A DNA stretch of 64,000 bases. It comes from an uncultured Agathobaculum sp. (lineage in GTDB: Bacteria; Bacillota; Clostridia; Oscillospirales; Butyricicoccaceae). Below are positions 11,455-64,000 of this stretch, piece after piece. The notes beneath the pieces are model-generated. The model did no database searches. It saw nothing but the letters and a program-made list of their open reading frames with translations, and was not told where the DNA came from. The translations under genes and the position numbers were made by a program. Every line of letters begins with the position of its first letter. Within the stretch, counting starts at the first letter, position 1. Location of the stretch: NCBI RefSeq assembly GCF_934504345.1, contig NZ_CAKSVR010000006.1; one strand, written 5' to 3'.

Positions 11455-11531
11455 GGCGGTATAGCTTAGTTGGCTAGAGCGTCCGGTTCATACCCGGAAG
11501 GTCATTGGTTCAAGTCCAATTACCGCTACCA
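11455..11531 (+). tRNA. tRNA-Met (anticodon CAT, elongator-like; tRNA-Ile2 not excluded)
   Basis: Hand-folded cloverleaf: acceptor GGCGGTA/TACCGCT, anticodon arm TCCGG-TTCATAC-CCGGA, T loop TTCAAGT, encoded CCA. Confidence 0.9.
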
Positions 11532-11543
11532 CTTTTTTCTCTT

Positions 11544-11618
11544 GGCCCGTTGGTCAAGCGGTCAAGACACCGCCCTTTCACGGCGGTAACGGGGGTTCGA
11601 TTCCCCCACGGGTCACCA
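11544..11618 (+). tRNA. tRNA-Glu (anticodon TTC)
   Basis: Cloverleaf: acceptor GGCCCGT/ACGGGTC, anticodon arm CCGCC-CTTTCAC-GGCGG, T arm GGGGG-TTCGATT-CCCCC, CCA. Confidence 0.92.
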
Positions 11619-11621
11619 GAT

Positions 11622-11697
11622 GGAAGTTTAGCTCAGCTGGGAGAGCATCTGCCTTACAAGCAGAGGGTCACAGGTTCGAGCCCTGTAACTTCCACCA
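11622..11697 (+). tRNA. tRNA-Val (anticodon TAC)
   Basis: Cloverleaf: acceptor GGAAGTT/AACTTCC, anticodon loop CTTACAA, T arm ACAGG-TTCGAGC-CCTGT, CCA. Confidence 0.92.
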
Positions 11698-11704
11698 AGT
11701 TCAA

Positions 11705-11736
11705 GGCACTCACGAAAGTGAGTGCCTTTTCTTTTT
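11705..11736 (+). terminator. Intrinsic terminator of the tRNA operon
   Basis: GGCACTCAC-GAAA-GTGAGTGCC followed by TTTTCTTTTT. Confidence 0.85.
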
Positions 11737-11757
11737 GCCTGAGAGGAAATCAACCGC

Positions 11758-12506
11758 CTTTTCGGCACGCTGCTGTCCGGTGCACGCGAGGTGCGTGAGC
11801 GCTACGCCGTAACCGGGCGGCAGTCTTTTTCTCGGCACCCTTTTACTGGTGCACACGAGTTGCGTAAGCAATACGCCGTTGCCGGGCTGAGGATTTCGCC
11901 GCTTGCGAGCGGCGGGAGAACGGCGCTCCCGCGCGGGGCCTAAGAGGGCAGACAACCTACGGTTTTCCACCCTCTTAGGAAGCTCCCCTTTTCCCTTTTG
12001 GGATACCTCGGAGCGACGGAACGTTCCGTTCCTACTTAGAGGTGGGACCGAAAAAAGGAACGGCAGTACCGTTACCAGCTTGTAGGCCGCAAAGCGCCAT
12101 TCCTTTCACAGCTACGCTCAAGCCGCTAAAGCTCTGCTACACCCAGTTACGCAAAACCCGTGCAATCTGCCGCGATAACGCCGCAACAGCGCAGAAAACG
12201 TGAGCCGATACCGTTCCTTTATGCGAGTTACCTATGAAGTAGAGCCGTAAGGCTCGTTCGCGAGGTTGCCAAGGGAAAGGTAGGAGTTCAAAGAGGGAGG
12301 GAAACCGTAGGTGTTCCTCCCTTTTTGCGCCCGCCGCGCGAGCGGCCCGTTCCCGCCGTCCGCAGACGGCGAAACTCCCCAGCCCGGAAACGGCGTATCG
12401 CTAACGCAACTCGGTTGCACCACAAAACGGCTGCCGAGGAAAGGGCTGCCGCCCGGTTACGGCGTATTGCTTACGCAACTCGTGTGCACCGGAGAACGGG
12501 CTGCCG
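11758..12506 (+). repeat. Repeat family A, copy A1 (full-length, about 750 bp nested imperfect palindrome)
   Basis: Left arm 11758-12075 is the inverted repeat of right arm 12195-12506. The outer arms each carry two tandem ~66-nt units. The core is shared with 23064-23350, 29241-29706 and 41470-42147. Confidence 0.85.
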
Positions 12507-12548
12507 CTGGATTGCGGTTAAATCCCGCCTGCTTCACACAAACTACGT

Positions 12549-12577
12549 TTGCGTTACTCCCGCTTATACGGTATAAT
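12549..12577 (+). promoter_or_regulatory. Candidate promoter TTGCGT-17-TATAAT for the M16 peptidase pair
   Basis: Hexamers 40 nt upstream of the ATG at 12617. Confidence 0.5.
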
Positions 12578-12616
12578 ATTACCTATTGGACAATCTTTCC
12601 GGAATCGAGGGAAATT

Positions 12617-13900
12617 ATGCAACAAGTGACCCGAAAAAAGCTGGGTGCCGGGGTGAATCTCACCTGCATCACCACGCCGAAGTTCAAGCGGGCTGTGCTG
12701 CGCGCTATGCTGGTGCTGCCGCTCGGCGGCGAGGATGCCGCGCTGCGCGCGTGTCTGCCGCAGGTGCTGCGCCGCGGTACGGCCATGCTGCACGATATGC
12801 GGGCGTTCGGCACGGCGCTCGATGAGCTCTACGGCGCACGCATCGAGGCCGCTGTCCGCAAGGAGGGCGAAAACCTGTGCATCGGCTTTCTGTCGGACTG
12901 CATCGATGAAGCCTACGCACCGGGCGCGGACGGCCTGACCGCCGGTGTCATCGGTCTGCTGACCGACCTGCTGTGCGACCCGTATCTTCAGGACGGCCTG
13001 TTCTGTGCGGCCTATGTGGACGGCGAACGCGGCAACCTGATCGACCGCATCGCTTCGCTCAAAAACGACCCGCGCTCGTGGGCGCCGCGCCGTTTGAACG
13101 AAATTATGTGCGAGAATGAGGCCTATGGTCAGTCCGCGCTCGGCACGGCGGAGCAGGCGGCGCGCATCACGCCGGAAACGCTGTACGCGGCGTACCGCCG
13201 GGCGCTGCGCGAGGCGCAGGTGGAGTTGTTCTACTGCGGCACGATGCAGCCGGACGACATCGCGGCGCTGTTTGCGGCCACGCCGCTGGCTCAGCCGAGA
13301 GAGGGCACGCTGTATCAGCCGCACACAGTCGTGCAGGCACGGCCTGCCGGTCCGGTCCGCGAGGTCATCGAGGAGGCGCAGGTGACACAGGGCAAGCTGT
13401 CGCTCGGCTTCCGTACGGGCGGCGCGGCGCTCACCGAGGGCGATGCCCCGGCGTTCTGGCTGTTCCAGACCATCTACGGCGGTTCGACCAGCGCCAAGCT
13501 GTTCCTCAATGTGCGCGAGAAAAAATCGCTGTGCTACTATGCGAGTGCACAGTTCGTGGCTTCCAAGGGCCTGATGATCGTCAATTCCGGCATCGAGAAC
13601 AGAAATTTCGAGGTCGCACGCGACGAGATCCTGCACCAGCTGGAGGTCTGCCGCACGGGCGGCATCACCGAGAGCGAGCTCGAGAGCGCCCGCAAAACGC
13701 TGGTGAACAGCTGGCGCACCATGCTGGACGACCCGCTCACGCTCGAGCGCTACTGGCTGGGACAGGCGGCTGCGGGTACGCTCGTATCGCCCGAGGCGCG
13801 CATTGACCAGATGGCCGATGTGGATCTTGCGCGTGTCATCACTGCCGCGCAGAACACGGCGCTCGACACGGTATTCTTTATGAAAGGGGCGGCACAATGA
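12617..13900 (+). CDS. M16 (insulinase/pitrilysin) family protein, non-catalytic subunit type (no HxxEH)
   Basis: MQQVTRKKLGAGVNL...; M16 fold without the zinc motif. The ORF-track N-terminal extension (12311-12616) is translated repeat A1. Confidence 0.85.
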   Translation: MQQVTRKKLGAGVNLTCITTPKFKRAVLRAMLVLPLGGEDAALRACLPQVLRRGTAMLHDMRAFGTALDELYGARIEAAVRKEGENLCIGFLSDCIDEAYAPGADGLTAGVIGLLTDLLCDPYLQDGLFCAAYVDGERGNLIDRIASLKNDPRSWAPRRLNEIMCENEAYGQSALGTAEQAARITPETLYAAYRRALREAQVELFYCGTMQPDDIAALFAATPLAQPREGTLYQPHTVVQARPAGPVREVIEEAQVTQGKLSLGFRTGGAALTEGDAPAFWLFQTIYGGSTSAKLFLNVREKKSLCYYASAQFVASKGLMIVNSGIENRNFEVARDEILHQLEVCRTGGITESELESARKTLVNSWRTMLDDPLTLERYWLGQAAAGTLVSPEARIDQMADVDLARVITAAQNTALDTVFFMKGAAQ

Positions 13901-16888: not shown

Positions 16889-16895
16889 ACAAAAA

Positions 16896-16932
16896 CCGCC
16901 CGTATCCGGGTTGACAATCCGGATACGGGCGG
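16896..16932. terminator. 14-bp perfect hairpin after folD, flanked by an A5 run (T5 on minus); its loop contains a -35 hexamer
   Basis: CCGCCCGTATCCGG-GTTGACAAT-CCGGATACGGGCGG. The T-run is on the minus side, so it is best placed to stop leftward toxin transcription; it may also stop folD. Confidence 0.6.
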
Positions 16933-16939
16933 GTATACT
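16911..16939 (+). promoter_or_regulatory. Consensus promoter TTGACA-17-TATACT (antitoxin-like RNA 1)
   Basis: Hexamers at 16911-16916 and 16934-16939. Confidence 0.65.
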
Positions 16940-16945
16940 AAAGAT

Positions 16946-17037
16946 AACGAAAGGTGCTGCCGGTAGACGGTCAGCCCCTAAAATTGTGGAAAGAAGTAAT
17001 CGCACATGTAGGAGTGTCGGCGGTTACTTCTTTTTTG
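16946..17037 (+). ncRNA. Candidate type I antitoxin sRNA 1 (about 90 nt; ends approximate)
   Basis: Runs from the consensus promoter to the terminator AAGAAGTAATCGC...GCGGTTACTTCTT+T6. No ORF with an RBS. Its 3' part is antisense to the end of toxin ORF 1. Confidence 0.5.
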
Positions 17038-17095
17038 TTCCTAAAATACGCTCAATGAGTACGAGTATCACTACAAGTATTACGAGATATTCCAT
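17024..17095 (-). CDS. Candidate type I toxin peptide, 23 aa: MEYLVILVVILVLIERILGTKKK
   Basis: ATG at 17095 preceded by GGGGGTGG 6 nt upstream. Hydrophobic helix plus a KKK tail. The TAA stop lies inside the terminator stem. Below the ORF-track size cutoff. Confidence 0.6.
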   Translation of the reverse strand: MEYLVILVVILVLIERILGTKKK

Positions 17096-17165
17096 AGAAC
17101 CACCCCCTTGCAGGGGCAAGACTTAACCGCCTACCGCAGGCGCGGCAGCACCTTTCTTAACGACA

Positions 17166-17194
17166 AGTATAACAGAGTTCGACAGAATACGCAA
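17166..17194 (-). promoter_or_regulatory. Minus-strand promoter TTGCGT-17-TATACT (toxin 1 mRNA)
   Basis: Reverse complement of 17189-17194 and 17166-17171. Confidence 0.55.
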
Positions 17195-17204
17195 TATGGC
17201 ATAC

Positions 17205-17233
17205 TTGACAATCAAGGTGCGGGCGGGTATACT
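17205..17233 (+). promoter_or_regulatory. Consensus promoter TTGACA-17-TATACT (antitoxin-like RNA 2)
   Basis: Hexamers at 17205-17210 and 17228-17233, divergent from the toxin 1 promoter. Confidence 0.65.
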
Positions 17234-17239
17234 AAAGAT

Positions 17240-24817: not shown

Positions 24818-25019
24818 TTAAGGCAACACCGCACAATTAAAGCTGCGGCTCCTTGCGCAGGCTCCGGTCGCGCTGCCGCGGCGCTTTGTGAAAATTTTAC
24901 GTCCTGACTTTGTTGCGATTTCACGGTAATACAGCAAGTATTACCGCAAAATCGCGCCTCGTCAGTACGCAAAATTTATGCACAAATCGCTCTTGTTCAA
25001 TTATGCGGTATTGCCTTAA
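24818..25019 (+). mobile_element. Repeat family B, copy B2 (202 bp, one internal 32-nt module)
   Basis: TTAAGGCAACACCGCACAATTAAAG ... TTCAATTATGCGGTATTGCCTTAA. Confidence 0.8.
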
Positions 25020-25040: not shown

Positions 25041-26288
25041 ATGAAAAAGGACAATACGCCGGTCGATATTGACTTTGCGGAGGCGGCGGTGCCGCATTAT
25101 GCCCGCCGCGGCATCGTGACGATGTTCATGATCATGCTGGGCTTCACGTTCTTCTCGGCCAGTATGTGGGTCGGTCAGGAAATGGCCGATGGACTGGATT
25201 TTGGCGGCTTTATCACTTCCATGATCATCGGCGGCATTATTTTGAGCCTGTACACCGGCCTGCTGGGCTATGTCGGCGCGGAAACCGGCATGAGCCTTGA
25301 CCTGCTGGCACGCAAGGCGTTCGGCCTCAAGGGCTCGTACCTGCCGAGCGCGATGATCTCGTTCACGCAGATCGGCTGGTTCGGTGTCGGCATCGCCATG
25401 TTCGCGATCCCGGTCGCAAATGAACTGCTCGGCGGCAGCACGACGGCGGAGTGGGTGCTCGTTATCATCGCAGGTGCGTGCATGACGGCCTCGGCCTACT
25501 TCGGCATCAAGTCGCTGACGGCCATCAGCTACATTGCGGTGCCGCTGGTCGCTGTTCTGGGCACGGTGGCGATGGTAATGGCGGTCAAGCGCGGCGACGG
25601 CACGATGATCGACCAGTTCGCCAAGTCGAGCGGCACGCTGACGGTCATCGGCGGTGCGGGTCTGGTCATCGGCTCGTTCGTTTCGGGCGGTACGGCGACC
25701 CCGAACTTCTCCCGCTTCGCCCGCAATGGCAAGGTCGGCGCCATCACGACCGTTATCGCGTTCTTCATCGGCAACTCGCTGATGTTCTTCTTCGGCGGTA
25801 TTTCGTCGGTTTATGTCGGCGGCAACGACATTTTTGAGGTCATGATCAACCTCGGTCTGTTCTATCTGGCAATCCTGGTGCTCGGCCTCAATATCTGGAC
25901 CACCAACGACAACGCGCTGTATTCGGCGGGTCTGGGTCTGGCGAACATTTTCGGCCAGAAGAAAAAGACGATGGTGCTCATTTCCGGCATTGTCGGCACG
26001 GTGCTGTCGGTCTGGCTGTACTGGAATTTCACCGGCTGGCTGAATATCCTCAACTGCACGCTGCCGCCGGTCGGCATCATTCTGGTGCTCAGTTTCTTTA
26101 TGCACCGCGAGCAGTACAAGGACGTTGCGGTGACGGAAAATGTCAACTGGTTTGCCGTTCTCGGCGTTGTGGTCGGCGCGGTCGTGGCCAATATCGTACC
26201 GTGGGGTATCGCATCCATCAACGGCATGGTGGTCGCAGCGGTGTGCTATCTGCTTGGCAGCAAGGCCAAGGCAACACCGCACAATTAA
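25041..26288 (+). CDS. codB: Cytosine permease (NCS1 family)
   Basis: 415 aa, 12 TM spans, CodB-like throughout. The last 6 codons and the stop lie inside repeat B3. Confidence 0.9.
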   Translation: MKKDNTPVDIDFAEAAVPHYARRGIVTMFMIMLGFTFFSASMWVGQEMADGLDFGGFITSMIIGGIILSLYTGLLGYVGAETGMSLDLLARKAFGLKGSYLPSAMISFTQIGWFGVGIAMFAIPVANELLGGSTTAEWVLVIIAGACMTASAYFGIKSLTAISYIAVPLVAVLGTVAMVMAVKRGDGTMIDQFAKSSGTLTVIGGAGLVIGSFVSGGTATPNFSRFARNGKVGAITTVIAFFIGNSLMFFFGGISSVYVGGNDIFEVMINLGLFYLAILVLGLNIWTTNDNALYSAGLGLANIFGQKKKTMVLISGIVGTVLSVWLYWNFTGWLNILNCTLPPVGIILVLSFFMHREQYKDVAVTENVNWFAVLGVVVGAVVANIVPWGIASINGMVVAAVCYLLGSKAKATPHN

Positions 26289-26500
26289 AGCTGCGGCTCC
26301 TTGCGCAGGCTCCGGTCGCGCTGCCGCGGCGCTTTGTGGAAATTTTGTGCTCTGACTTTGGCTTCGGTTCCTTGCGCGAGTTCCGTCCGCGCTGCCGAGA
26401 TTTTTTGCAATACGTCAAGTATTGCTGCAAAACCGCGCCTCGTCAGTACGCAAAATTTACTCACAAATCGCTCTTGTTCAATTATGCGGTATTGCCTTAA
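26266..26500 (+). mobile_element. Repeat family B, copy B3 (235 bp, two internal 32-nt modules)
   Basis: CCAAGGCAACACCGC... ...GCGGTATTGCCTTAA. The central hairpin has compensatory changes (GCAATAC/GTATTGC). Confidence 0.8.
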
Positions 26501-29221: not shown

Positions 29222-29240
29222 GATTTGCAAATCCGTTTTA

Positions 29241-29706
29241 GGAAACGGGAACGTGCCGCACGCGTGGCGGGCGCACAAGAGGGTAGACAACCTACGGTTT
29301 TCCACCCTCTTGTGAATCACCCCTTTTCCCTTGATTCCTAAGCCGGCGCACGGAACGGCTACGCCGTTCCTATTTGAGCTCGGGACCGAAAAAAGAGAAC
29401 GGCAGTACCGTTACCGGCTGATAGGTTCGGCTTAACGCCGCCCATTCCTCTCTCGGCTGCGCTCAAGCCGTTAGAGGTCTGCTACACTGCCTTTACGCAA
29501 AACCCGTGAAATCTGCCGCGATAACGCCGCATCAACGCAGGAAACGTGAGCCGATACCCGTTCCTTTATGCGAGTTACCTATGAAGTAGGGTCGTAAGAC
29601 CCGTTCGCGAGGTCGCCGAGGGAAAAGGGGAGCTTCCTAAGAGGGTGGAAAACCGTAGGTTGTCTACCCTCTTAGGCCCCGCGCGGGAGCGCCGTTCCCC
29701 GTTTCC
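29241..29706 (+). repeat. Repeat family A, copy A3 (466 bp, core plus inner arms, no outer 66-nt units)
   Basis: Ends GGAAACGGGAACG / CGTTCCCCGTTTCC are inverted. The inner hairpins CACAAGAGGG..CCCTCTTGTG and CCTAAGAGGG..CCCTCTTAGG mirror each other. Confidence 0.85.
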
Positions 29707-29791
29707 CAAACGGTGTGTCAAACCGTACTCTGCAAACCGAAATCAAACAAACCCACCCGGGTTTTCCCATAAAAAAGAGGAGGAAACGAAA

Positions 29792-41469: not shown

Positions 41470-42147
41470 TCGGCAGCAGCCCGTTTCCCGGCAGTCGTTC
41501 TCCGGTGCATACGAGGCGCGTGAGCGCTGCGCCGCAGCCGGGCAGCAGCCCTTTCCTCGGCAGCCGTTCTCTGGTGCATACGAGTCGCGTAAGCGATACG
41601 CCGTTGCCGGGCGGGGGATTTCGCGCTCTGCGGAGCGCGGGAACGGTTTCCAAAAGGATAGACACCCCCTACGGTGGTTTCTATCCTCTTGGGACTCCAT
41701 CTTCCGCCCTTTTGGGATACCTCGGAGCGACGGAACGCAAGCGTTCCTACTTAGAGGTGGGACCGAAAAAAGGAACGGCAGTACCGTTACCAGCTCGTAG
41801 GCCGCAAAGCGCCATTCCTTTCACAGCTGCGCTCAAGCCGTTAACGGTCTGCGACAGTATTTACGCAAAACCCGTGCAATCTGCCGCGATAACGCCGCGA
41901 CAGCGCGGAAAACGTGAGCCGATACCGTTCCTTTATGCGAGTTACTTATGAAGTAGGGCCGCAGGCCCGTTCGCGAGGTTGCTGAGGGAAAGATAGGAGT
42001 TCAAAGAGGAAAGGAAACCGTAGGTGTCCTTTCCTTTTTGCGCTCGCGCCGCGTAGGCGCGCCCGTTCCCGCGCTCCGCAGAGCGCGAAACTCCCCAGCC
42101 CGGAAACGGCGTATTGCTTCGCAACTCGTGTGCACCGGAGAACGGCA
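41470..42147 (+). repeat. Repeat family A, copy A4 (678 bp; two 66-nt units on the left arm, one on the right)
   Basis: Aligns with A1 along its full length. Ends 2 nt from the ppk1 stop codon. Confidence 0.85.
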
Positions 42148-42148
42148 G

Positions 42149-44284
42149 TCAACGTTTCTCGAGCCACCCGCGGAGCTTCGCGAAAAACCCGCCCGCCTGC
42201 GGCGTATGCGCTGCCGCAGCCTGATTTTTCGCACTCTCGATGGCCTGCTGCATCAGCAGATCCTGCGCGCAGATGGGATCCTGAACGGCGGGCTTTTTCG
42301 TATACGAGCCGTCCGGCTGGAGCACCCGCGCCTTGACGGTGTCGTGCTGCATGGCGTAAAGGATGTCGTGCAGACGGGCGCGTACCTCGGCGCTGTCGAT
42401 CGGGCAGGCGACCTCCACGCGGTGCTCGGTGTTGCGCGTCATCAGGTCGGCGGAGGCGATATACATCTTCTCCTCCTCGCCGCGCCCGAACACATAGATG
42501 CGCGAATGCTCGAGGAAACGTCCGACAATGCTCGTCACCGTGATGTTGTCGGTGTGGCCCGGCACACCGGGCAGCAGACAGCAGATGCCGCGCACGATGA
42601 GCTCGATCTTCACGCCCGCGCACGAGGCTTCGCGCAGCTTGGCGATGATGTCGATGTCGGTCAGCGAGTTGAATTTGAGCAGGATATAGCCCGCACTGCC
42701 TTTGGAAATCTGCTCGTCCATCAGGGACAGGATGTTGTTCTTCAGGCTGTGCGGCGCGACGAGCAGACGGTCATACCGGCCATGCAGGTTGCTGAGCGCC
42801 ATATTGTTGAAGAACGCGCCCGCATCCGCGCCGATGCGCTCGTCCGAGGTGATGAGCGACACATCGGTGTACTGCCTGGCGGTTTTTTCGTTGTAGTTGC
42901 CCGTGCCGACCTGCGTGATGTGCCGCACGCCGCCGCGCTCCCGGCGGGTGATGAGGCACAGCTTGGAGTGGACCTTATAATCCTCAAAGCCGTAAATGAT
43001 CTTGCAGCCAGCCTCCTCCATGCGCTCGGACCAGTCGATGTTGTTCTGCTCATCAAAACGGGCGCGCAGCTCGATGAGCGCAGTGACGTCCTTGCCGTTC
43101 TCGGCGGCGGCGCACAGGTATTCCACCAGCTTGGCCTTGCTCGCCAGCCGGTAGATGGTGATGCGGATGGACAGCACAGCCGGGTCGTTGGCCGCCTCGC
43201 GTATCATTTGCAGGAACGGCTCCATGCTCTCATACGGGTAGGAGAGCAGGATGTCGCGCTGGAGCGCGGTCTTGAGCAGGCTCTGTCCGGCGGGCAGCAT
43301 GGCGGGCTGCTGCGGTGTGAACGGCGGGTCGCTGAGGAACGCCCGTTTTTTATCCGGCAGGGACTCGCCTAGCGAGAACGCATAGCCCATTTTGAGCGGC
43401 GCCGTGCGCGACAGGAAGATCTGTGCATCGCTGACCTCAAAGCGGCTGCGGAAGTGCGCCTGAAAGTGGTCGCTGATCGGGCGGGTGAGCTCAACGCGCA
43501 CGACCGCCAGACGGCGGCGCTGGCGCAGCAGGTGCTCCATCTTTTGGCGGATGTCGCCGCCGTCCACGCCGAACGTTTCGTCATCCGGCTGAATATCCGC
43601 GTTACGGGTGACACAGAACACGGTCTTTTCGAGCACATCGTACATCTCGAACACATGGTCGGCGTAAGCGAGCAGAATATCCTCGGTGAGGATATAGCGC
43701 CGCCCGTCCTCCGGCAGAAAGACCAGCGGCGGCAGCGAGGCCGGAATGGGCAGCAGGCCGAGGCGCTCGGTCTTTTTGCGGCTGAGCAGTGCCGCGATAT
43801 GCAGCACCTTGCCCTCCAGATGCGGGAACGGATGGTGCGAGTCCACGATCTGCGGGGACAGCACCGGCGCGATGATGCGCTTGAAATACTGTTTGACGAA
43901 TTTCTGCTCGTCCGGCGTGAGTGTGTTCATCGTCAGGCGGCGCAGACCGAGCGCACCGAGGCGGCTGTCCACATCCGCGAATGCGGCATCGCGGCGGGCA
44001 TAGAGCGGCTCGACCGCCCTGTAAATGCGGTGCAGCTGCTCCTTTGCCGTCAGGCCGGATTTGTTGTCCGTGTGGGTCGGGTCGAGTGCGGCCATGTCGC
44101 ACAGGCTGCCGACACGGATCATGAAAAATTCATCCAGATTGCTGGTGAAGATGGCGAGGAACTTGAAGCGCTCGAGCAGCGGCACGGTTTCGTCCTCGGC
44201 CTCAGCCAGCACGCGGGCGTTGAACTGAAGCCATGAAAGCTCACGGTTTTGTGTATATCCCTGCTCCCAGATGGCCTGTGTCAT
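42149..44284 (-). CDS. ppk1: Polyphosphate kinase 1
   Basis: 711 aa: NRELSWLQFNARVL N-terminus, and two PLD-like HKD regions. Confidence 0.96.
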   Translation of the reverse strand: MTQAIWEQGYTQNRELSWLQFNARVLAEAEDETVPLLERFKFLAIFTSNLDEFFMIRVGSLCDMAALDPTHTDNKSGLTAKEQLHRIYRAVEPLYARRDAAFADVDSRLGALGLRRLTMNTLTPDEQKFVKQYFKRIIAPVLSPQIVDSHHPFPHLEGKVLHIAALLSRKKTERLGLLPIPASLPPLVFLPEDGRRYILTEDILLAYADHVFEMYDVLEKTVFCVTRNADIQPDDETFGVDGGDIRQKMEHLLRQRRRLAVVRVELTRPISDHFQAHFRSRFEVSDAQIFLSRTAPLKMGYAFSLGESLPDKKRAFLSDPPFTPQQPAMLPAGQSLLKTALQRDILLSYPYESMEPFLQMIREAANDPAVLSIRITIYRLASKAKLVEYLCAAAENGKDVTALIELRARFDEQNNIDWSERMEEAGCKIIYGFEDYKVHSKLCLITRRERGGVRHITQVGTGNYNEKTARQYTDVSLITSDERIGADAGAFFNNMALSNLHGRYDRLLVAPHSLKNNILSLMDEQISKGSAGYILLKFNSLTDIDIIAKLREASCAGVKIELIVRGICCLLPGVPGHTDNITVTSIVGRFLEHSRIYVFGRGEEEKMYIASADLMTRNTEHRVEVACPIDSAEVRARLHDILYAMQHDTVKARVLQPDGSYTKKPAVQDPICAQDLLMQQAIESAKNQAAAAHTPQAGGFFAKLRGWLEKR

Positions 44285-46606: not shown

Positions 46607-46842
46607 CTAAGGCAACACCGCACAATTAAAGCGGCGGCTCCTTGTGCAGGCTCCGGTCGCACTGCCGCGGTGCTTTGCGGAAATTTTGTGTCCTGACTTT
46701 GGCTTCGGTTCCTTGCGCGAGTTCCGTCCGCGCTGCCGAAGTTTCACGGTAATACATCAAGTATTACCGCAAAACTGTGCCTCGTCAGTACGCAAAATTT
46801 ACTCGCAAATCACTCTTGTTCAATTATGCGGTATTGCCCTAA
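46607..46842 (+). mobile_element. Repeat family B, copy B4 (236 bp, two internal modules)
   Basis: CTAAGGCAACACCGC... ...GCGGTATTGCCCTAA. Lies between merR and the MATE gene. The merR stop codon is inside its last 4 nt. Confidence 0.8.
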
Positions 46843-52961: not shown

Positions 52962-53090
52962 ACGGCGGCGGTGCTTTGCGGAAATTTTGTGCTCTGGCAT
53001 CGTTGCGCTTCCTTGCAATACACAAAGTATTGCTGCGGAACCGCGCCTCGCCAGAACGCAAACTTTACTCGCAAATCACTCTTGCCGCAT
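52962..53090 (+). repeat. Repeat family B, degenerate internal fragment B5 (no terminal repeats)
   Basis: GGTGCTTTGCGGAAATTTTGTGCTCTG...TGCAATACACAAAGTATTGCTGCGG...CGCAAACTTTACTCGCAAATCACTCTTG aligns to the B interior. Confidence 0.65.
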
Positions 53091-53213
53091 CACTCGTCAG
53101 CACCTCTGATGGTGCCGCGGATTATACGGAAACACCTGACGATATTGCAGCAATATCGTCGTTTGCCGCCGCTGCATTTCCCTCAAACGCAGCGGCGGGT
53201 CGGGTCGATGGAC

Positions 53214-57270: not shown

Positions 57271-59463
57271 TTATTCGCTGTCGGATACAGTTACAGCCTT
57301 TTCCGTGGTCTTTGCGACCGCTTTTTCCGTGGCTTTCGTCACAGCCTTGGTTCCGGTGCGGGCTACCGCCTTTTCACCGGTCTTGGCTACGGCCTTGGAG
57401 GTCGTTTTTGCAACGGCCTTCTCCGTGGTCTTTGCAACGGCCTTGGTGCCGGTCTTTGCGACGGCTTTGGTGCCGGTCTTGGTCACGGCCTTGGTCGAGC
57501 GGGTGCGCTTTGCGGGCTTGTCGGCCGCCTCGGCCTTTGCCGCTTCGATCTCGGCCTTGGTGCGGCGCTTGGCTCTCGCCTTGCCCTTGAGGAACAGCAC
57601 GCCGAAGCGCGGGATCTTGAGCGCGATGGACTGCTCCTGCCCGTGCATGGGCTTGCTGTCGGTCTTGACCTTGCCGTTGGCTATGCCGCTGCCGCCGAAC
57701 TCGGTCTTGTCCGAGGTGAATATTTCTTCGTAGGTGCCGGTGATCGGTACGCCGATGCGGTATTCCTGCTGCTCCTCCGGGGAGAAGTTGACAACGACCA
57801 CGATGTCCGAGCCGTCCTTGGCGACACGGCGGAACGCGATGATGTTGTTGCGGTTATCCTCGTGGCTGATCCACTCGAAGCCGCGCCAGTCGGTATCCTG
57901 CTCCCACAGCTGCGGAGTCGCAAGATAGAAATGGTTGAGTGCCTTGACATAGCTCTGCATCTGCTTGTGCGCCGGATAGTCCAGCAGCATCCAGTCCAGA
58001 CCGCGCTGGTACGCCCATTCGGAGAACTGGGCGAACTCGCCGCCCATGAACAGCATCTTCTTGCCCGGATGTGCGGCCATGTAGCCGTACAGTGCGCGCA
58101 GACCGCCGAACTGGTTCTCATACGGAGGCGGCATCTTGCCGATGAGCGAGCACTTGCCGTGTACGACCTCATCGTGCGAGAGCGGCAGGATGTAATTCTC
58201 GGAAAAGGCATACATGAACGAGAACGTGATCTTGTCATGCATATCCTTGCGGAAGAACGGGTCGGCCGAGCAGTAGCACAGCATATCGTTCATCCAGCCC
58301 ATGTTCCACTTGAAGTTGAAGCCCAGACCGCCGTCATAGCCAGGTTTCGTGACCATCGGCCACGCGGTGGACTCCTCCGCGATCATCAGGACGTCCGGAT
58401 GATCGGTCAGTATGTACTCGTTGAGCAGGCGCAGGAAGTCGACCGCTTCGAGATTCTCGCGTCCGCCGTGGATGTTCGGCCGCCATTCATTCTGGCGGTT
58501 GTAGTCCAGATACAGCATGGACGCGACCGCGTCTACGCGCAGGCCGTCCATGTGGAACTTCTCGATCCAGAACATTGCGGACGAGAACAGCAGGTTTCGC
58601 GTCGAGGTCTTGCCATAGTCGAACACGCGCGTGCCCCATTCCTTGTGCTCCATCTTGAGCGGATCGGCGTACTCATACAGATGCGAGCCGTCGAACTCGA
58701 CCAGACCGCAGCCGTCCTTCGGGAAGTGAGCCGGAACCCAGTCCATGATGACGCCGAGGCCGGCCTGATGCGCCTTGTCGATCAGGTACATGAGATCCTT
58801 CGGCGTGCCGTAGCGGCTGGTCGCGGCGAAATAGCCGATGACCTGATAGCCCCACGAGCCGTCGAACGGATACTCGGTCAGCGGCATGAACTCGATATGC
58901 GTGTAGCCCATTTCCTTGACATAGGGAACGAGCTCGTCCGCGAGCTGGCGGTAGGAATAAAAATTACCGTCCTCGTGCATCTTCCACGAGCCGAGATGGC
59001 ACTCGTAGATGTTGACCGGACTGGAATACGGCAAGTGGTTTTTGCGCCACTGGAGCCAGCTGTCGTCGCCCCATTCGTAGCCGCTGATATCATACGCCTT
59101 GGTGGCGTTGCCCGGGCGGGTCTCGAAGTGGAAGCCATACGGGTCGGACTTGTCGAATACATCGCCCGATTTGGCCCATACGCTGTACTTGTACGCGGTA
59201 TATTCCGCGATATTCGGAATAAATTTCTCCCAGATGCCCTGCTCGTCGCGGGTCATGTAATCGGCTTCCCGGTCCCAGCCGTTGAACTCACCCATGACCG
59301 ACACGTTCGCCGCCTCCGGCGCGTACACGCGGAACAGATATCCCTGCTCGCCGTCCTGCACGAAGGGGTGTGCGCCCATGTAGTCATAAGCTCGGCAATC
59401 CCTGCCCGAGTAGAAAAGCTCGCTGCGCTTTTCTACGGCCGGGGATGCGGATTTCTTCCTCAT
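57271..59463 (-). CDS. glgB: 1,4-alpha-glucan branching enzyme with repetitive K/A/T-rich C-terminal tail
   Basis: GH13 branching enzyme core (DWVPAHF, GLRVDAVASMLY, EESTAWP). The last ~80 aa are 8-aa repeats of KAVAKTGT type. Confidence 0.95.
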   Translation of the reverse strand: MRKKSASPAVEKRSELFYSGRDCRAYDYMGAHPFVQDGEQGYLFRVYAPEAANVSVMGEFNGWDREADYMTRDEQGIWEKFIPNIAEYTAYKYSVWAKSGDVFDKSDPYGFHFETRPGNATKAYDISGYEWGDDSWLQWRKNHLPYSSPVNIYECHLGSWKMHEDGNFYSYRQLADELVPYVKEMGYTHIEFMPLTEYPFDGSWGYQVIGYFAATSRYGTPKDLMYLIDKAHQAGLGVIMDWVPAHFPKDGCGLVEFDGSHLYEYADPLKMEHKEWGTRVFDYGKTSTRNLLFSSAMFWIEKFHMDGLRVDAVASMLYLDYNRQNEWRPNIHGGRENLEAVDFLRLLNEYILTDHPDVLMIAEESTAWPMVTKPGYDGGLGFNFKWNMGWMNDMLCYCSADPFFRKDMHDKITFSFMYAFSENYILPLSHDEVVHGKCSLIGKMPPPYENQFGGLRALYGYMAAHPGKKMLFMGGEFAQFSEWAYQRGLDWMLLDYPAHKQMQSYVKALNHFYLATPQLWEQDTDWRGFEWISHEDNRNNIIAFRRVAKDGSDIVVVVNFSPEEQQEYRIGVPITGTYEEIFTSDKTEFGGSGIANGKVKTDSKPMHGQEQSIALKIPRFGVLFLKGKARAKRRTKAEIEAAKAEAADKPAKRTRSTKAVTKTGTKAVAKTGTKAVAKTTEKAVAKTTSKAVAKTGEKAVARTGTKAVTKATEKAVAKTTEKAVTVSDSE

Positions 59464-63442: not shown

Positions 63443-64000
63443 TTATCGACGGAACATTTTCGCGCCCTTTTTAACCGCTGCAACAAAGGCATCCACATCT
63501 TCCGTGGTGTTGAACGGTGCGAACGAAACGCGCAGTGCGCTGTCCGTGCGGGCTTTCGGCAGACCGAGCGCCTTGAGCACGCCGCTCTGCTTGCCCTTGG
63601 AGCACGCCGAGCCGCTGGAAATGTACACCTCGTCCCCCTCGAGAACGTGCAGCATGACCTCGCTCTTGCAGCCGGGCATGGAAAGATTGATAACGTGCGG
63701 AATATCGCCCGCGCCGTTTATCACCGCATCGGGCAGCTCGGCGGCCACCTGCCGGCGGAGATAGTCGGCCAGCGCCTGCACATGGGTGTAATCCTCGTCA
63801 AAGTGCGCCATGCGGATCTCGCACGCCTTGGCGAACGCCGCGATGTTCGGTACGGCCTCAGTGCCCGGGCGCATCCCGCGCTCCTGACCGCCGCCGAACG
63901 TCAGCGGAGGCAGGCGCAGGCCCTTTTTCACATACAGCGCGCCGATTCCCTTGGGTGCGCCGATCTTATGACCGGAAACGCTCATCAGGTCGCAGTTCCA
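63443..64000 (-). CDS. nifS: Cysteine desulfurase (NifS/IscS class), partial (N-terminus beyond window end)
   Basis: SVSGHKIGAPKGIGALYVKKG contains the PLP-lysine motif SxHK. The frame remains open to the window edge. Classic nifS-thiI neighbourhood. Confidence 0.88.
   Translation of the reverse strand, partial: WNCDLMSVSGHKIGAPKGIGALYVKKGLRLPPLTFGGGQERGMRPGTEAVPNIAAFAKACEIRMAHFDEDYTHVQALADYLRRQVAAELPDAVINGAGDIPHVINLSMPGCKSEVMLHVLEGDEVYISSGSACSKGKQSGVLKALGLPKARTDSALRVSFAPFNTTEDVDAFVAAVKKGAKMFRR

Follow-up and report, generated by a model that had tools for sequence, protein, structure and literature searches.

Family A, a candidate BIME/BOX-like structured intergenic repeat built of inverted units in human-gut Agathobaculum

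The analyzed stretch of DNA (64,000 nt, hereafter the window) originates from an uncultured Agathobaculum sp. and carries, directly behind a tRNA operon, an intergenic inverted repeat of about 750 bp. This repeat, designated A1, is related to three further copies in the window (A2, A3 and A4), and these sequences together with their homologs on other contigs are called family A here. The locus raises the question of whether a palindrome of such size is an element in its own right or a consequence of the way in which smaller units are arranged, and what kind of element is then involved. The reading to which we assign a probability of roughly one half is that family A is a lineage-specific, non-coding, non-autonomous structured intergenic repeat of this uncultured human-gut species and its close relatives, resembling the bacterial interspersed mosaic elements (BIMEs) and the BOX elements.

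The inverted repeat itself was found to be real and extensive, as the preliminary description of this DNA had stated. When A1 was searched against the window by BLASTN, it matched its own reverse complement at 70.6% identity in an alignment of 773 columns (E 2.7e-98), and an inverted-repeat finder resolved three arm pairs, namely 11763–11896 with 12373–12506 (134 nt, 82% complementary), 11933–11994 with 12273–12334 (62 nt, 71% complementary) and an innermost pair of 15 nt (12049–12063 with 12211–12225). The folding energy of A1 (753 nt) was −447.0 kcal/mol for the plus strand and −446.3 kcal/mol for the minus strand, while the means of shuffled sequences were −291 and −304, respectively (z about −24 and −21). 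Arm complementarity ranged from 65 to 82% and fell off toward the center. The unpaired center of A1 measures about 147 nt (12064–12210) rather than the approximately 120 nt given earlier, and this non-palindromic stretch is made of two unrelated 5' regions, one per half-unit. The outer arms proved to be tandem subrepeats of ~62–75 nt (TRF period 69 in A4), which also corrects the earlier description.

In the preliminary description, the giant palindrome was taken for the entity. The comparison of copies did not bear this out: the repeating unit is one half of the palindrome, since single units of the right-hand (R) type occur alone and the A3 locus is monomeric in a sister species. A unit is ~200–350 nt long and consists of a 5' region, a core hairpin, a T hairpin, an X module and 0–3 tandem S subrepeats (Table 1). 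Dimers contain a diverged L-type unit on the minus strand and an R-type unit on the plus strand, joined 5'-to-5', and a quasi-palindrome of 650–770 bp therefore arises automatically from this head-to-head joining. The 5' boundary of the R units is sharp in the aligned copies, which begin with TTACGCAAAACC..., and long invariant stretches lie between the covarying stems in the interior of the unit. At the apex of the R core of A1, GTAG (12239–12242) and a GAGCC-GTAA-GGCTC stem-loop (12242–12255) are located, and in the L core, GTAG is followed by the palindrome GGAACG-GAA-CGTTCC. The position of GTAG directly ahead of a GC-rich stem-loop of 5–6 bp was invariant in 13 R and 3 L units. The T-loop motif AAACCGTAGGT had six exact matches in the window, all of them within family A copies. 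With no more than one mismatch allowed, seven matches were found against 0.4 expected, and the lone match outside the copies (17919–17929) contained one mismatch.

A BLASTN search with A1 recovered the three related copies at the positions given for them previously, namely A4 (match 41489–42146, 83.7%), A3 (29246–29713, 79.7%) and A2 (23134–23349, 75.3%), all on the plus strand. A4 lies between the bidirectional terminator of a carD-like gene and ppk, and it supplies the stop codon of ppk. A2 was matched by the right half of A1 alone and does not have S subrepeats; it includes an upstream hairpin H (23089–23110), a 5' region with a hairpin insertion of 28 nt, the core, T and a short X, and it is directly followed by the perfect promoter of the next gene (TTGACA-18-TATAAT, 23370–23399). 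At the A3 locus of the sister species, where the flanks are 84–89% identical, one R unit is present on the opposite strand. Two further copies of the same strain lie within 8 kb beyond window position 64000. A5 (L053:5416–6156), the next copy, lies 2 kb past the window end in the pfk-purA spacer; it is a complete dimer of reversed orientation that shares 90% identity with A1. A6 (L053:1244–1704) is a rearranged, partially dimeric copy in the pflA-pflB spacer. This strain thus contains six family A loci in about 72 kb. The same orientation for all copies, as claimed before, is valid inside the window and was broken by A5 just beyond its end. The claim that all copies are intergenic requires one correction, in that A4 replaces the last eight codons of ppk, the other copies being extragenic. 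A high copy number had been expected as well; it agrees with the density of loci in this strain and with the many assemblies that break inside A1 or A4, but the public data yielded ~10–15 distinct loci.

A metagenome scan with an invariant 25-mer gave 11 loci, most of which hold just the part of A1 from ~12147 to 12440 according to nhmmer and BLAST. L(−)/R(+) dimers are present at A1, A3, A4 and A5, and single units were as common as dimers. Lone R units were found in A2, in L019/L011, in the L012 group and in L013; in A2, L013 and L019/L011, a shared hairpin GGGCGG-N10-CCGCCC precedes the unit. In the L012 group (six contigs, one locus), the lone R unit is preceded by a stop codon and followed by an intrinsic terminator that shares its strand. 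L012, L013 and the A6 copy of L054 carry an additional hairpin of ~55 nt within their T stems. L042 is a fragment comprising the 3' half of T, then X and then ~3 S subrepeats (two full and one cut short), and it stops in the middle of a subrepeat at the stop codon of a HEPN gene.

Two genes adjoining copies on other contigs were noted. In L020 (186–1190), an open reading frame (ORF) for the N-terminal domain alone of an FGGY carbohydrate kinase runs into a family A copy, which could mean either that the element inserted into the gene or that the contig is chimeric. A minus-strand gene (L021:7125–7685) located upstream of the copy in the L012 group joins a signal peptide for twin-arginine translocation (TAT) to a helix-turn-helix (HTH) domain of the XRE type, of which the C-terminal two-thirds are present; this fusion suggests a rearrangement at the 5' side of the element.

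Sequence comparison of the copies revealed that the local hairpins are kept through compensatory changes, and the long-range pairing of the arms has no such signature. The T hairpin is built of six different stems, all compensated, around one invariant apex. In a strand-neutral alignment with a fixed register, the ratio of G:T to A:C mismatches in the T hairpins was 7:0 on the sense strand of the unit, and this excess of G:T was seen both for R units (plus strand) and for L units (minus strand). Full compensation is also seen in the X stems, which occur as GCGCTC/GAGCGC, GCCGCC/GGCGGC and GCCGTC/GACGGC and have the common loop CGCA, and in three species, the S hairpins keep a YWAC loop on the stems TTGC/GCAA, GCGC/GCGC and CCGC/GCGG. 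In R units, the apical stem of the core is GGGCC/GGCCC, GAGCC/GGCTC or GGGTC/GACCC; L units have GGAACG/CGTTCC instead, and the loop of this stem-loop is of the GNRA type in most copies. In the 13 R units, 97.7% of the cells of the consensus structure are paired, double changes are seen in four pairs, and the score for covariation is above those of all 500 shuffles; the covariation is modest because the 13 copies are close relatives. On the sense strand, the G:T to A:C ratio in the core hairpin was 31:18, and the minimum free energy of single sequences was better on this strand in 7 of 8 units. The alifold energy was similar on the two strands (−41.7 vs. −38.5), and G-U counts were likewise similar when each strand was allowed to fold freely. 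For the long arms, the plus-strand G:T to A:C ratio was 17:18 in A1, 17:19 in A4, 22:23 in A5 and 11:8 in A3. This symmetry, together with the equal fold energy on both strands, fits two inverted copies drifting apart and not a selected helix of 350 bp.

The preliminary description had proposed a comparison with relatives in order to find empty sites, and such sites were found at two of the loci. In a species whose PPK is 90% identical (L046), the ppk-carD spacer is 74 nt long and does not contain family A, and in A. butyriciproducens (88% PPK), an unrelated MITE of 230 nt (a miniature transposable element with inverted repeats) occupies the same spot. Comparison of the filled allele of the window with the empty allele of L046 showed that about 65 bp of ancestral sequence were replaced, including the ppk-proximal hairpin and the last eight ppk codons. 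No target duplication was present at ppk-carD, the one site with a clean empty allele. The PPK tail was changed by A4 from ...FLEKIRKWFSGS to ...WLEKR. It was also noted that at the 3' end of ppk (42149–42175, minus strand), the product ends in ...GWLEKR*, and that it ends in ...GFLEKIRKWFSGS* in two related species. A 10-nt identity, GTTCTCCGGT, between the end of A4 and the empty ppk site was considered and set aside as probably due to chance, because the 11 nt between GTTCTCCGGT and the conserved flank differ at 10 positions. The second case is A5, which is missing from the pfk-purA spacer of a relative that is 85–91% identical to L053 (85–92% to the window).

The family acquires new sites on the time scale of species, and its copies are long-lived once they stand at orthologous positions. 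In the spacer upstream of the M16 peptidase gene, S-type repeats abut the same flank (TTGCGGTTAA...) in three species, and the M16 proteins of the two relatives sharing the A1 site are 85% and 87% identical to that of the window species. The S sequences at this spacer are strongly diverged between species, and contigs break within them. The T-X module in the pflA-pflB spacer is common to three lineages. Orthologous A5 copies are 92–94% identical and the surrounding 8 kb are 97.8% identical; that is, the copies diverge about three times faster than their flanks. They are also mosaics of each other, as individual modules of the A5 copies match different paralogs. At A6, the R core lies on opposite strands in L053 and L054, strains that are 95–97% identical. 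A clean inversion switch was ruled out there, because the two alleles differ strongly and in content too, and the signs of an inverton, an invertible promoter set between inverted repeats, were absent, with no clean flip at A6 and no promoter inside A1 in a promoter scan. Contigs end inside A4 in six of nine cases when they carry ppk and inside A1 in five of ten when they carry the M16 gene, and two more of the latter are joined to other copies.

No evidence of coding capacity was found, in accordance with the earlier statement that there is no credible ORF: six-frame translations were not conserved between copies, and indels of 1 nt separate the copies. A search of the translated repeat ORFs against a collection of 5.8 billion proteins gave six proteins in all, one of which led to the fragment L042. 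Pfam searches likewise upheld the reported lack of a mobility gene nearby. Transposase, integrase and reverse transcriptase domains were found neither in the 64 kb nor in about 18 kb of adjoining sequence, 8 kb beyond the right end and the flanks of other loci, and a Y1 transposase domain was absent from the window and the flanks of the copies examined. Covariance models supported the view that A1 is not a described RNA family. At gathering thresholds, three tRNAs in the 64 kb and nothing else passed with Rfam 15; at E ≤ 10, nothing above 22 bits except tRNA was found in 11650–12650, and five whole loci with other copies gave no matches at E ≤ 1. Rfam would include the families of the IS605-orfB and HEARO types as well as group I/II introns and ribozymes.

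A sigma-70-type promoter was detected neither inside A1 (promoter scan) nor upstream of any unit (scan and reading upstream of single units). Canonical promoters of this organism are found nearby, namely TTGCGT-17-TATAAT before the M16 gene and the promoter located after A2. Shared terminal inverted repeats were absent, the ends of A1–A5, L042 and the L012 group falling at differing points of the S, X or T modules, and no common flanking tetranucleotide was seen among the copies. Among 185,579 species-representative genomes, the exact invariant core 25-mer had a single AT-rich chance match in a metagenome-assembled genome of Bacteroidia. Viral contigs scanned with core, T and 5'-region motifs gave no matches, nor did PLSDB plasmids and INPHARED phages in a distant-mode BLASTN search, and no description of a family A element was found in the literature. 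Family A is narrow in distribution, being limited to a small group of gut Agathobaculum species.

To place family A among known systems, it was compared with repetitive extragenic palindromic (REP) sequences and the larger structures formed by them. BIMEs alternate in orientation, are hybrid in composition, preserve their palindromes, accumulate substitutions fast and vary between strains (PMC2817692). Family A also has inverted units, doublets and mosaics, as seen in A1, A3, A4 and A5 and in the exchanged modules. Like REPs, BIMEs and REPINs (inverted REP doublets), it is extragenic, non-coding and species-specific, its hairpins are kept by compensatory mutation, and it exists as single units, inverted doublets and mosaics with tandem amplification. 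It shares with them as well an evolution faster than that of neighboring genes, variation between strains and persistence at orthologous sites across species. REPs are short imperfect palindromes headed by GT[AG]G, number more than 100 per genome and flank a cognate single-copy rayt gene. The GTAG directly before a GC-rich palindrome in every family A unit, with a stem of just 5–6 bp, may be a counterpart of this head. The hairpin modules, inverted unit types, hybrids and fast evolution match BIMEs and REPINs, and family A is therefore read as a non-autonomous structured repeat. At the same time, its unit is about ten times larger (200–350 vs. 20–40 nt), its dimer comprises ~750 against ~100 nt, and it has at least five hairpin types and long invariant non-palindromic stretches. 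It is thus larger and more modular than the classical REP, enterobacterial repetitive intergenic consensus (ERIC) and Correia elements, a difference to which the preliminary description had already pointed.

The BOX elements of Streptococcus pneumoniae are intergenic modules of a Gram-positive bacterium composed of boxA, 0–8 tandem boxB and boxC; they are strongly folding, non-coding and transcribed with their neighbors, with a size of about 100–400 nt and a fixed A-B(n)-C order. Both BOX and family A are modular intergenic repeats, and no sequence relationship is apparent. BOX elements are not known to occur as inverted dimers in which two diverged types of unit are joined.

If family A is a repeat of this kind, it would occasionally be copied to new spacers just behind stop codons. 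The copying could be the work of an enzyme whose gene lies elsewhere in the genome and which recognizes folded single-stranded hairpins in the manner of the HUH/Y1 transposases, such as the REP-associated tyrosine transposases (RAYTs) and the TnpA of IS200/IS605. Group 1 RAYTs are present in Clostridia (PMC5581495). After insertion, the copies would be remodeled by recombination and gene conversion between them, and the inverted dimer would be a by-product of unit organization, as a REPIN is. The location of the copies in 3' untranslated regions or inter-operon spacers makes an incidental role likely, and by analogy with REP, BIME and BOX they probably act as a transcription barrier or a 3'-end stabilizer.

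Several observations weigh against this assignment. No mobilizing gene is present in the window or in the flanks examined, and neither terminal inverted repeats nor target duplications are consistently present, with ~65 bp replaced at the A4 site. The best-conserved part of the unit is the interior (the R 5' region and the core) and not the ends; ordinary MITEs show the reverse, and such a pattern is typical of protein-binding sites or functional RNAs. The GTAG with its palindrome is much shorter than published REPs and is set in a far larger conserved unit. Finally, the G:T excess on the sense strand is modest (38:18, from non-independent copies) and disappears when the strands fold freely.

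A less probable but appreciable possibility is that family A represents a new class of structured nucleic-acid element in Clostridia, either a multicopy non-coding RNA of ~200–350 nt, whose conserved core would be surrounded by ornate hairpins, or the substrate of an undescribed mobilization system, HUH-type or other, that recognizes hairpins. Such a system may build mosaics of the BIME kind that exceed all known ones tenfold in size, among them quasi-palindromes of more than 700 bp tolerated by the host. Structured intergenic repeats are well studied in Proteobacteria and pneumococci and hardly in the abundant gut Clostridia. The Agathobaculum sp. analyzed here is densely loaded with repeat families, carrying a classical MITE in addition to family A at its six loci in 72 kb. 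These repeats break short-read assemblies, rewrite the 3' ends of genes (the ppk tail), mark spacers that vary between strains and outlast speciation. Should there be an RNA function or a cognate enzyme, family A, with its large unit of invariant core and covarying hairpins, would be a tractable model for the recognition of hairpin elements and for the survival of long quasi-palindromes in a Firmicute genome; if there is neither, it would be a marker for strain typing and assembly quality, of limited general interest.

The RNA alternative in its specific form states that each unit is the gene, or a processed 3'-UTR (untranslated region) product, of a new multicopy structured non-coding RNA of ~200–350 nt read from the sense strand, so that dimers are two divergent RNA genes. 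We regard it as doubtful. The invariant interior stretches flanked by covarying stems, the GNRA-type loop of the core and the sharp 5' boundary are all consistent with it, as is the insertion of variable hairpins at fixed points (28 nt in the 5' region of A2, and ~55 nt within T in L012, L013 and the A6 copy of L054). In addition, a run of five T follows the R-type T hairpin in A1, A4, A5, L020 and L013, in 7 of 8 units the minimum free energy is better for the sense strand, where G:T also outnumbers A:C in R as well as L units, and the unit of the L012 group lies between a stop codon and an intrinsic terminator of the same strand. Against this, no unit has a sigma-70-type promoter upstream, the orientation relative to flanking genes is not fixed, and the 3' extent is ragged (0–3 S subrepeats), with truncated fragments such as L042. 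The similar alifold energies of the strands (−41.7 vs. −38.5) and the mere four pairs with double changes among 13 closely related copies also argue against an RNA gene, and multicopy, mosaic and dimeric behavior is typical of repeats. The large structured RNAs ROOL, GOLLD, OLE and raiA share with family A a similar size range and a rich predicted structure, and one family A copy is located beside tRNA genes. Unlike them, family A is multicopy, dimeric, mosaic and free in orientation, and it had no covariance-model match at the thresholds tried.

That family A is an ordinary MITE, i.e., a deletion derivative of an insertion sequence located elsewhere in the genome that moves by cut-and-paste and has the arms as its terminal inverted repeats, appears unlikely. 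The long inverted arms and the multicopy, intergenic occurrence would fit, and the genome contains a textbook MITE with TA duplication (family B), which means that this lineage has, or once had, active DNA transposases. In the sequence of A1, a possible terminal inverted repeat of 6 bp (AACCGC...GCGGTT) was also read, with AAATC as a direct repeat on either side; A4 and A5 do not show this pattern. Correia/NEMIS, ERIC and family B elements are similar to family A in being multicopy, intergenic and non-autonomous, with filled and empty sites among relatives. MITEs have defined terminal inverted repeats and target duplications, whereas the ends of family A are ragged and differ between copies (0–3 S subrepeats, with L042 truncated in mid-subrepeat at a gene stop), the interior is conserved and the ends are least conserved, half-units are as common as dimers, and there is no duplication at the sole site with a clean empty allele.

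Two other groups of transposable elements can be compared with family A. In the eukaryotic Foldback (FB) transposons, a non-repeated center is enclosed by inverted arms of great length that consist of tandem subrepeats, many of their copies are non-coding, and their transposase family is known; the resemblance is an architectural analogy across domains of life, and no homology is implied. The palindrome-associated transposable elements (PATEs) of IS200/IS605 have neither terminal inverted repeats nor target-site duplications, their strand-specific subterminal hairpins are recognized as single-stranded DNA, and they can carry a structured RNA scaffold (omega/reRNA). They insert 3' of a fixed tetra- or pentanucleotide, their LE and RE hairpins are asymmetric, and they show a strand bias linked to replication. 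The plus strand is G-rich over most of the window, with a GC skew near zero in the last ~10 kb, and is taken as the leading strand because it is G-rich. The sense strand of R was this G-rich strand in five of six loci, too small a number to judge whether family A shares the strand bias of PATEs. It differs from them in having no conserved flanking tetranucleotide, no tnpA/tnpB nearby and variable ends.

It is slightly more unlikely still that the whole 750-nt hairpin is functional, either as a DNA cruciform or as long double-stranded RNA that would serve, for instance, as a substrate of RNase III, as an insulator or as a terminator for both directions. Its predicted stability is extreme, the dimer architecture recurs at A1, A3, A4, A5 and partially at A6, the dimers are located between transcription units, and A4 replaced the native ppk-proximal hairpin. 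However, the arms are complementary at 65–82% with a decay toward the center, single units are equally conserved without a partner arm, the A3 dimer corresponds to a monomer in the sister species, and the folding energy is the same on both strands. The arm mismatches have no strand bias, and no compensatory changes between the L and R arms have been seen so far; a selected giant hairpin was rejected on this strand-symmetric mismatch spectrum.

That A1 and A4 are chimeric palindromes produced by an assembler or by amplification has next to no probability: several short contigs are indeed chimeric at repeats (L026, L027), but both complete copies with both flanks recur at 99.4–100% identity in metagenome assemblies that were made independently, in different studies and with different assemblers (L002, L003, L006, L022, L023 and L030), so they are not artifacts.

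Table 1. Positions in the window of the family A copies, the modules of A1 and the adjoining tRNA operon
Feature	Position	Strand	Basis or remark
A1, full head-to-head dimer	11753–12518	both	ends approximate; right boundary from comparison with two related species
L unit of A1	12146 down to about 11753	minus	sequence comparison
Two tandem S subrepeats, L unit (left outer arm)	11763–11896	minus	inverted- and direct-repeat analysis
X hairpin, L unit: stem CGCCGCT, loop CGCA, stem AGCGGCG (minus strand)	11897–11934	minus	sequence reading
T hairpin, L unit; apical motif AAACCGTAGGT at 11955–11965	11935–11982	minus	inverted repeat, motif scan
L core hairpin, homologous to R core from CCGTTCCTTT on	11983–12063	minus	nhmmer E 3.5e-19, alignment
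L-specific 5' region, sequence unrelated to R 5' region	12064–12146	minus	alignment
R unit of A1	12147 to about 12518	plus	sequence comparison
R-specific 5' region (TTACGCAAAACCCGTGCAATCTGCCGCGATAACGCCG...), near-invariant among copies and species	12147–12210	plus	alignment
R core, long irregular hairpin	12211–12280	plus	RNAalifold, pair counts
T hairpin, R unit; apex AAACC-GTA-GGT invariant (12302–12312), then T5 run	12289–12327	plus	repeats, motif, pair counts
X module, R unit; stem-loop CGCCGTC-CGCA-GACGGCG at 12354–12371	12328–12385	plus	alignment of copies
Two tandem S subrepeats, R unit (right outer arm)	12386–12510	plus	repeat analysis, related species
A2, single R unit	23064–23369	plus	BLASTN, nhmmer, alignment
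A3, L(−)/R(+) dimer without S subrepeats	29232–29735	both	BLASTN, nhmmer
A4, L(−)/R(+) dimer; two S subrepeats left, one right	41470–42147	both	BLASTN, TRF period 69
tRNA-Met, tRNA-Glu, tRNA-Val operon	11455–11728	plus	ARAGORN, Rfam, terminator scan

The tRNA operon in front of A1 has its own intrinsic terminator (11703–11728), and A1 starts ~25 nt downstream of it. The adjacency to tRNA genes was observed at one of at least six loci, and the idea of a tRNA-linked element was rejected because this is a single locus. The neighborhood is an ordinary chromosome with genes for M16 peptidases, lgt, folD, rpiA, L21/L27, obg, an EamA transporter and spoVT, and with genes for an ABC ATPase, a tadA-like deaminase, pth, pyruvate kinase, the carD-like protein, ppk, glycogen metabolism, cinA and thiI. 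The PPK adjoining A4 is identical to WP_318360955.1 (uncultured Agathobaculum sp.), and the matching contigs originate from Hadza and other human-gut metagenomes.

Family B, the second repeat family of the window, is a classical MITE of 195–230 nt with the terminal inverted repeats AGGCAAYACCGCA...TGCGGTRTTGCCT. Copies were found at 24820–25019, 26268–26500 and 46609–46842, with a partial one at 52962–53108 and another in L043 (about 12135–12375). Its TA target duplication was recognized by comparing the filled site in A. butyriciproducens with the empty site in L046; this site behind ppk is the exact spot held by family A in the window species. Just past a family B copy, at ~26774 (L032:14702), the strain L032 diverges completely from the window, and beyond that point an Endonuclease_NS_2 gene, an aminotransferase gene and a gene for a giant SLH-domain protein replace spoVT and the following genes. 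This divergence is a strain-specific island boundary at a repeat.

The 1-kb spacer between folD and rpiA (16890–17950) contains 3–4 tandem modules with small hydrophobic minus-strand ORFs (MEYLVILVVILVLIERILGTKKK within 17024–17119, its paralog within 17649–17744 and MVHYSELFQLLSFLVAFASLIIQICKRK at 17320–17406). Each module includes a plus-strand promoter TTGACA-17-TATACT and a 29-nt inverted repeat CGGCAGCACCTTTCTTAACGACAAGTATA. Judging from the sequence, these modules look like tandem type I toxin–antitoxin loci. The start of the toxin–antitoxin-like repeat at 17143–17171, CGGCAGCACCTTTC, closely resembles the S-junction consensus of family A, CGGCAGCAGCCCTTTCC (for example, at 41472–41490), which may be due to chance or to a common recognition motif. 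In the 3' part of a glgB-like ORF on the minus strand (57307–57495), a repeat with a period of 12/24 nt (GGTCTTTGCGACGGCCTTGGTG...) was observed, which would encode a low-complexity tail rich in K, A and T.

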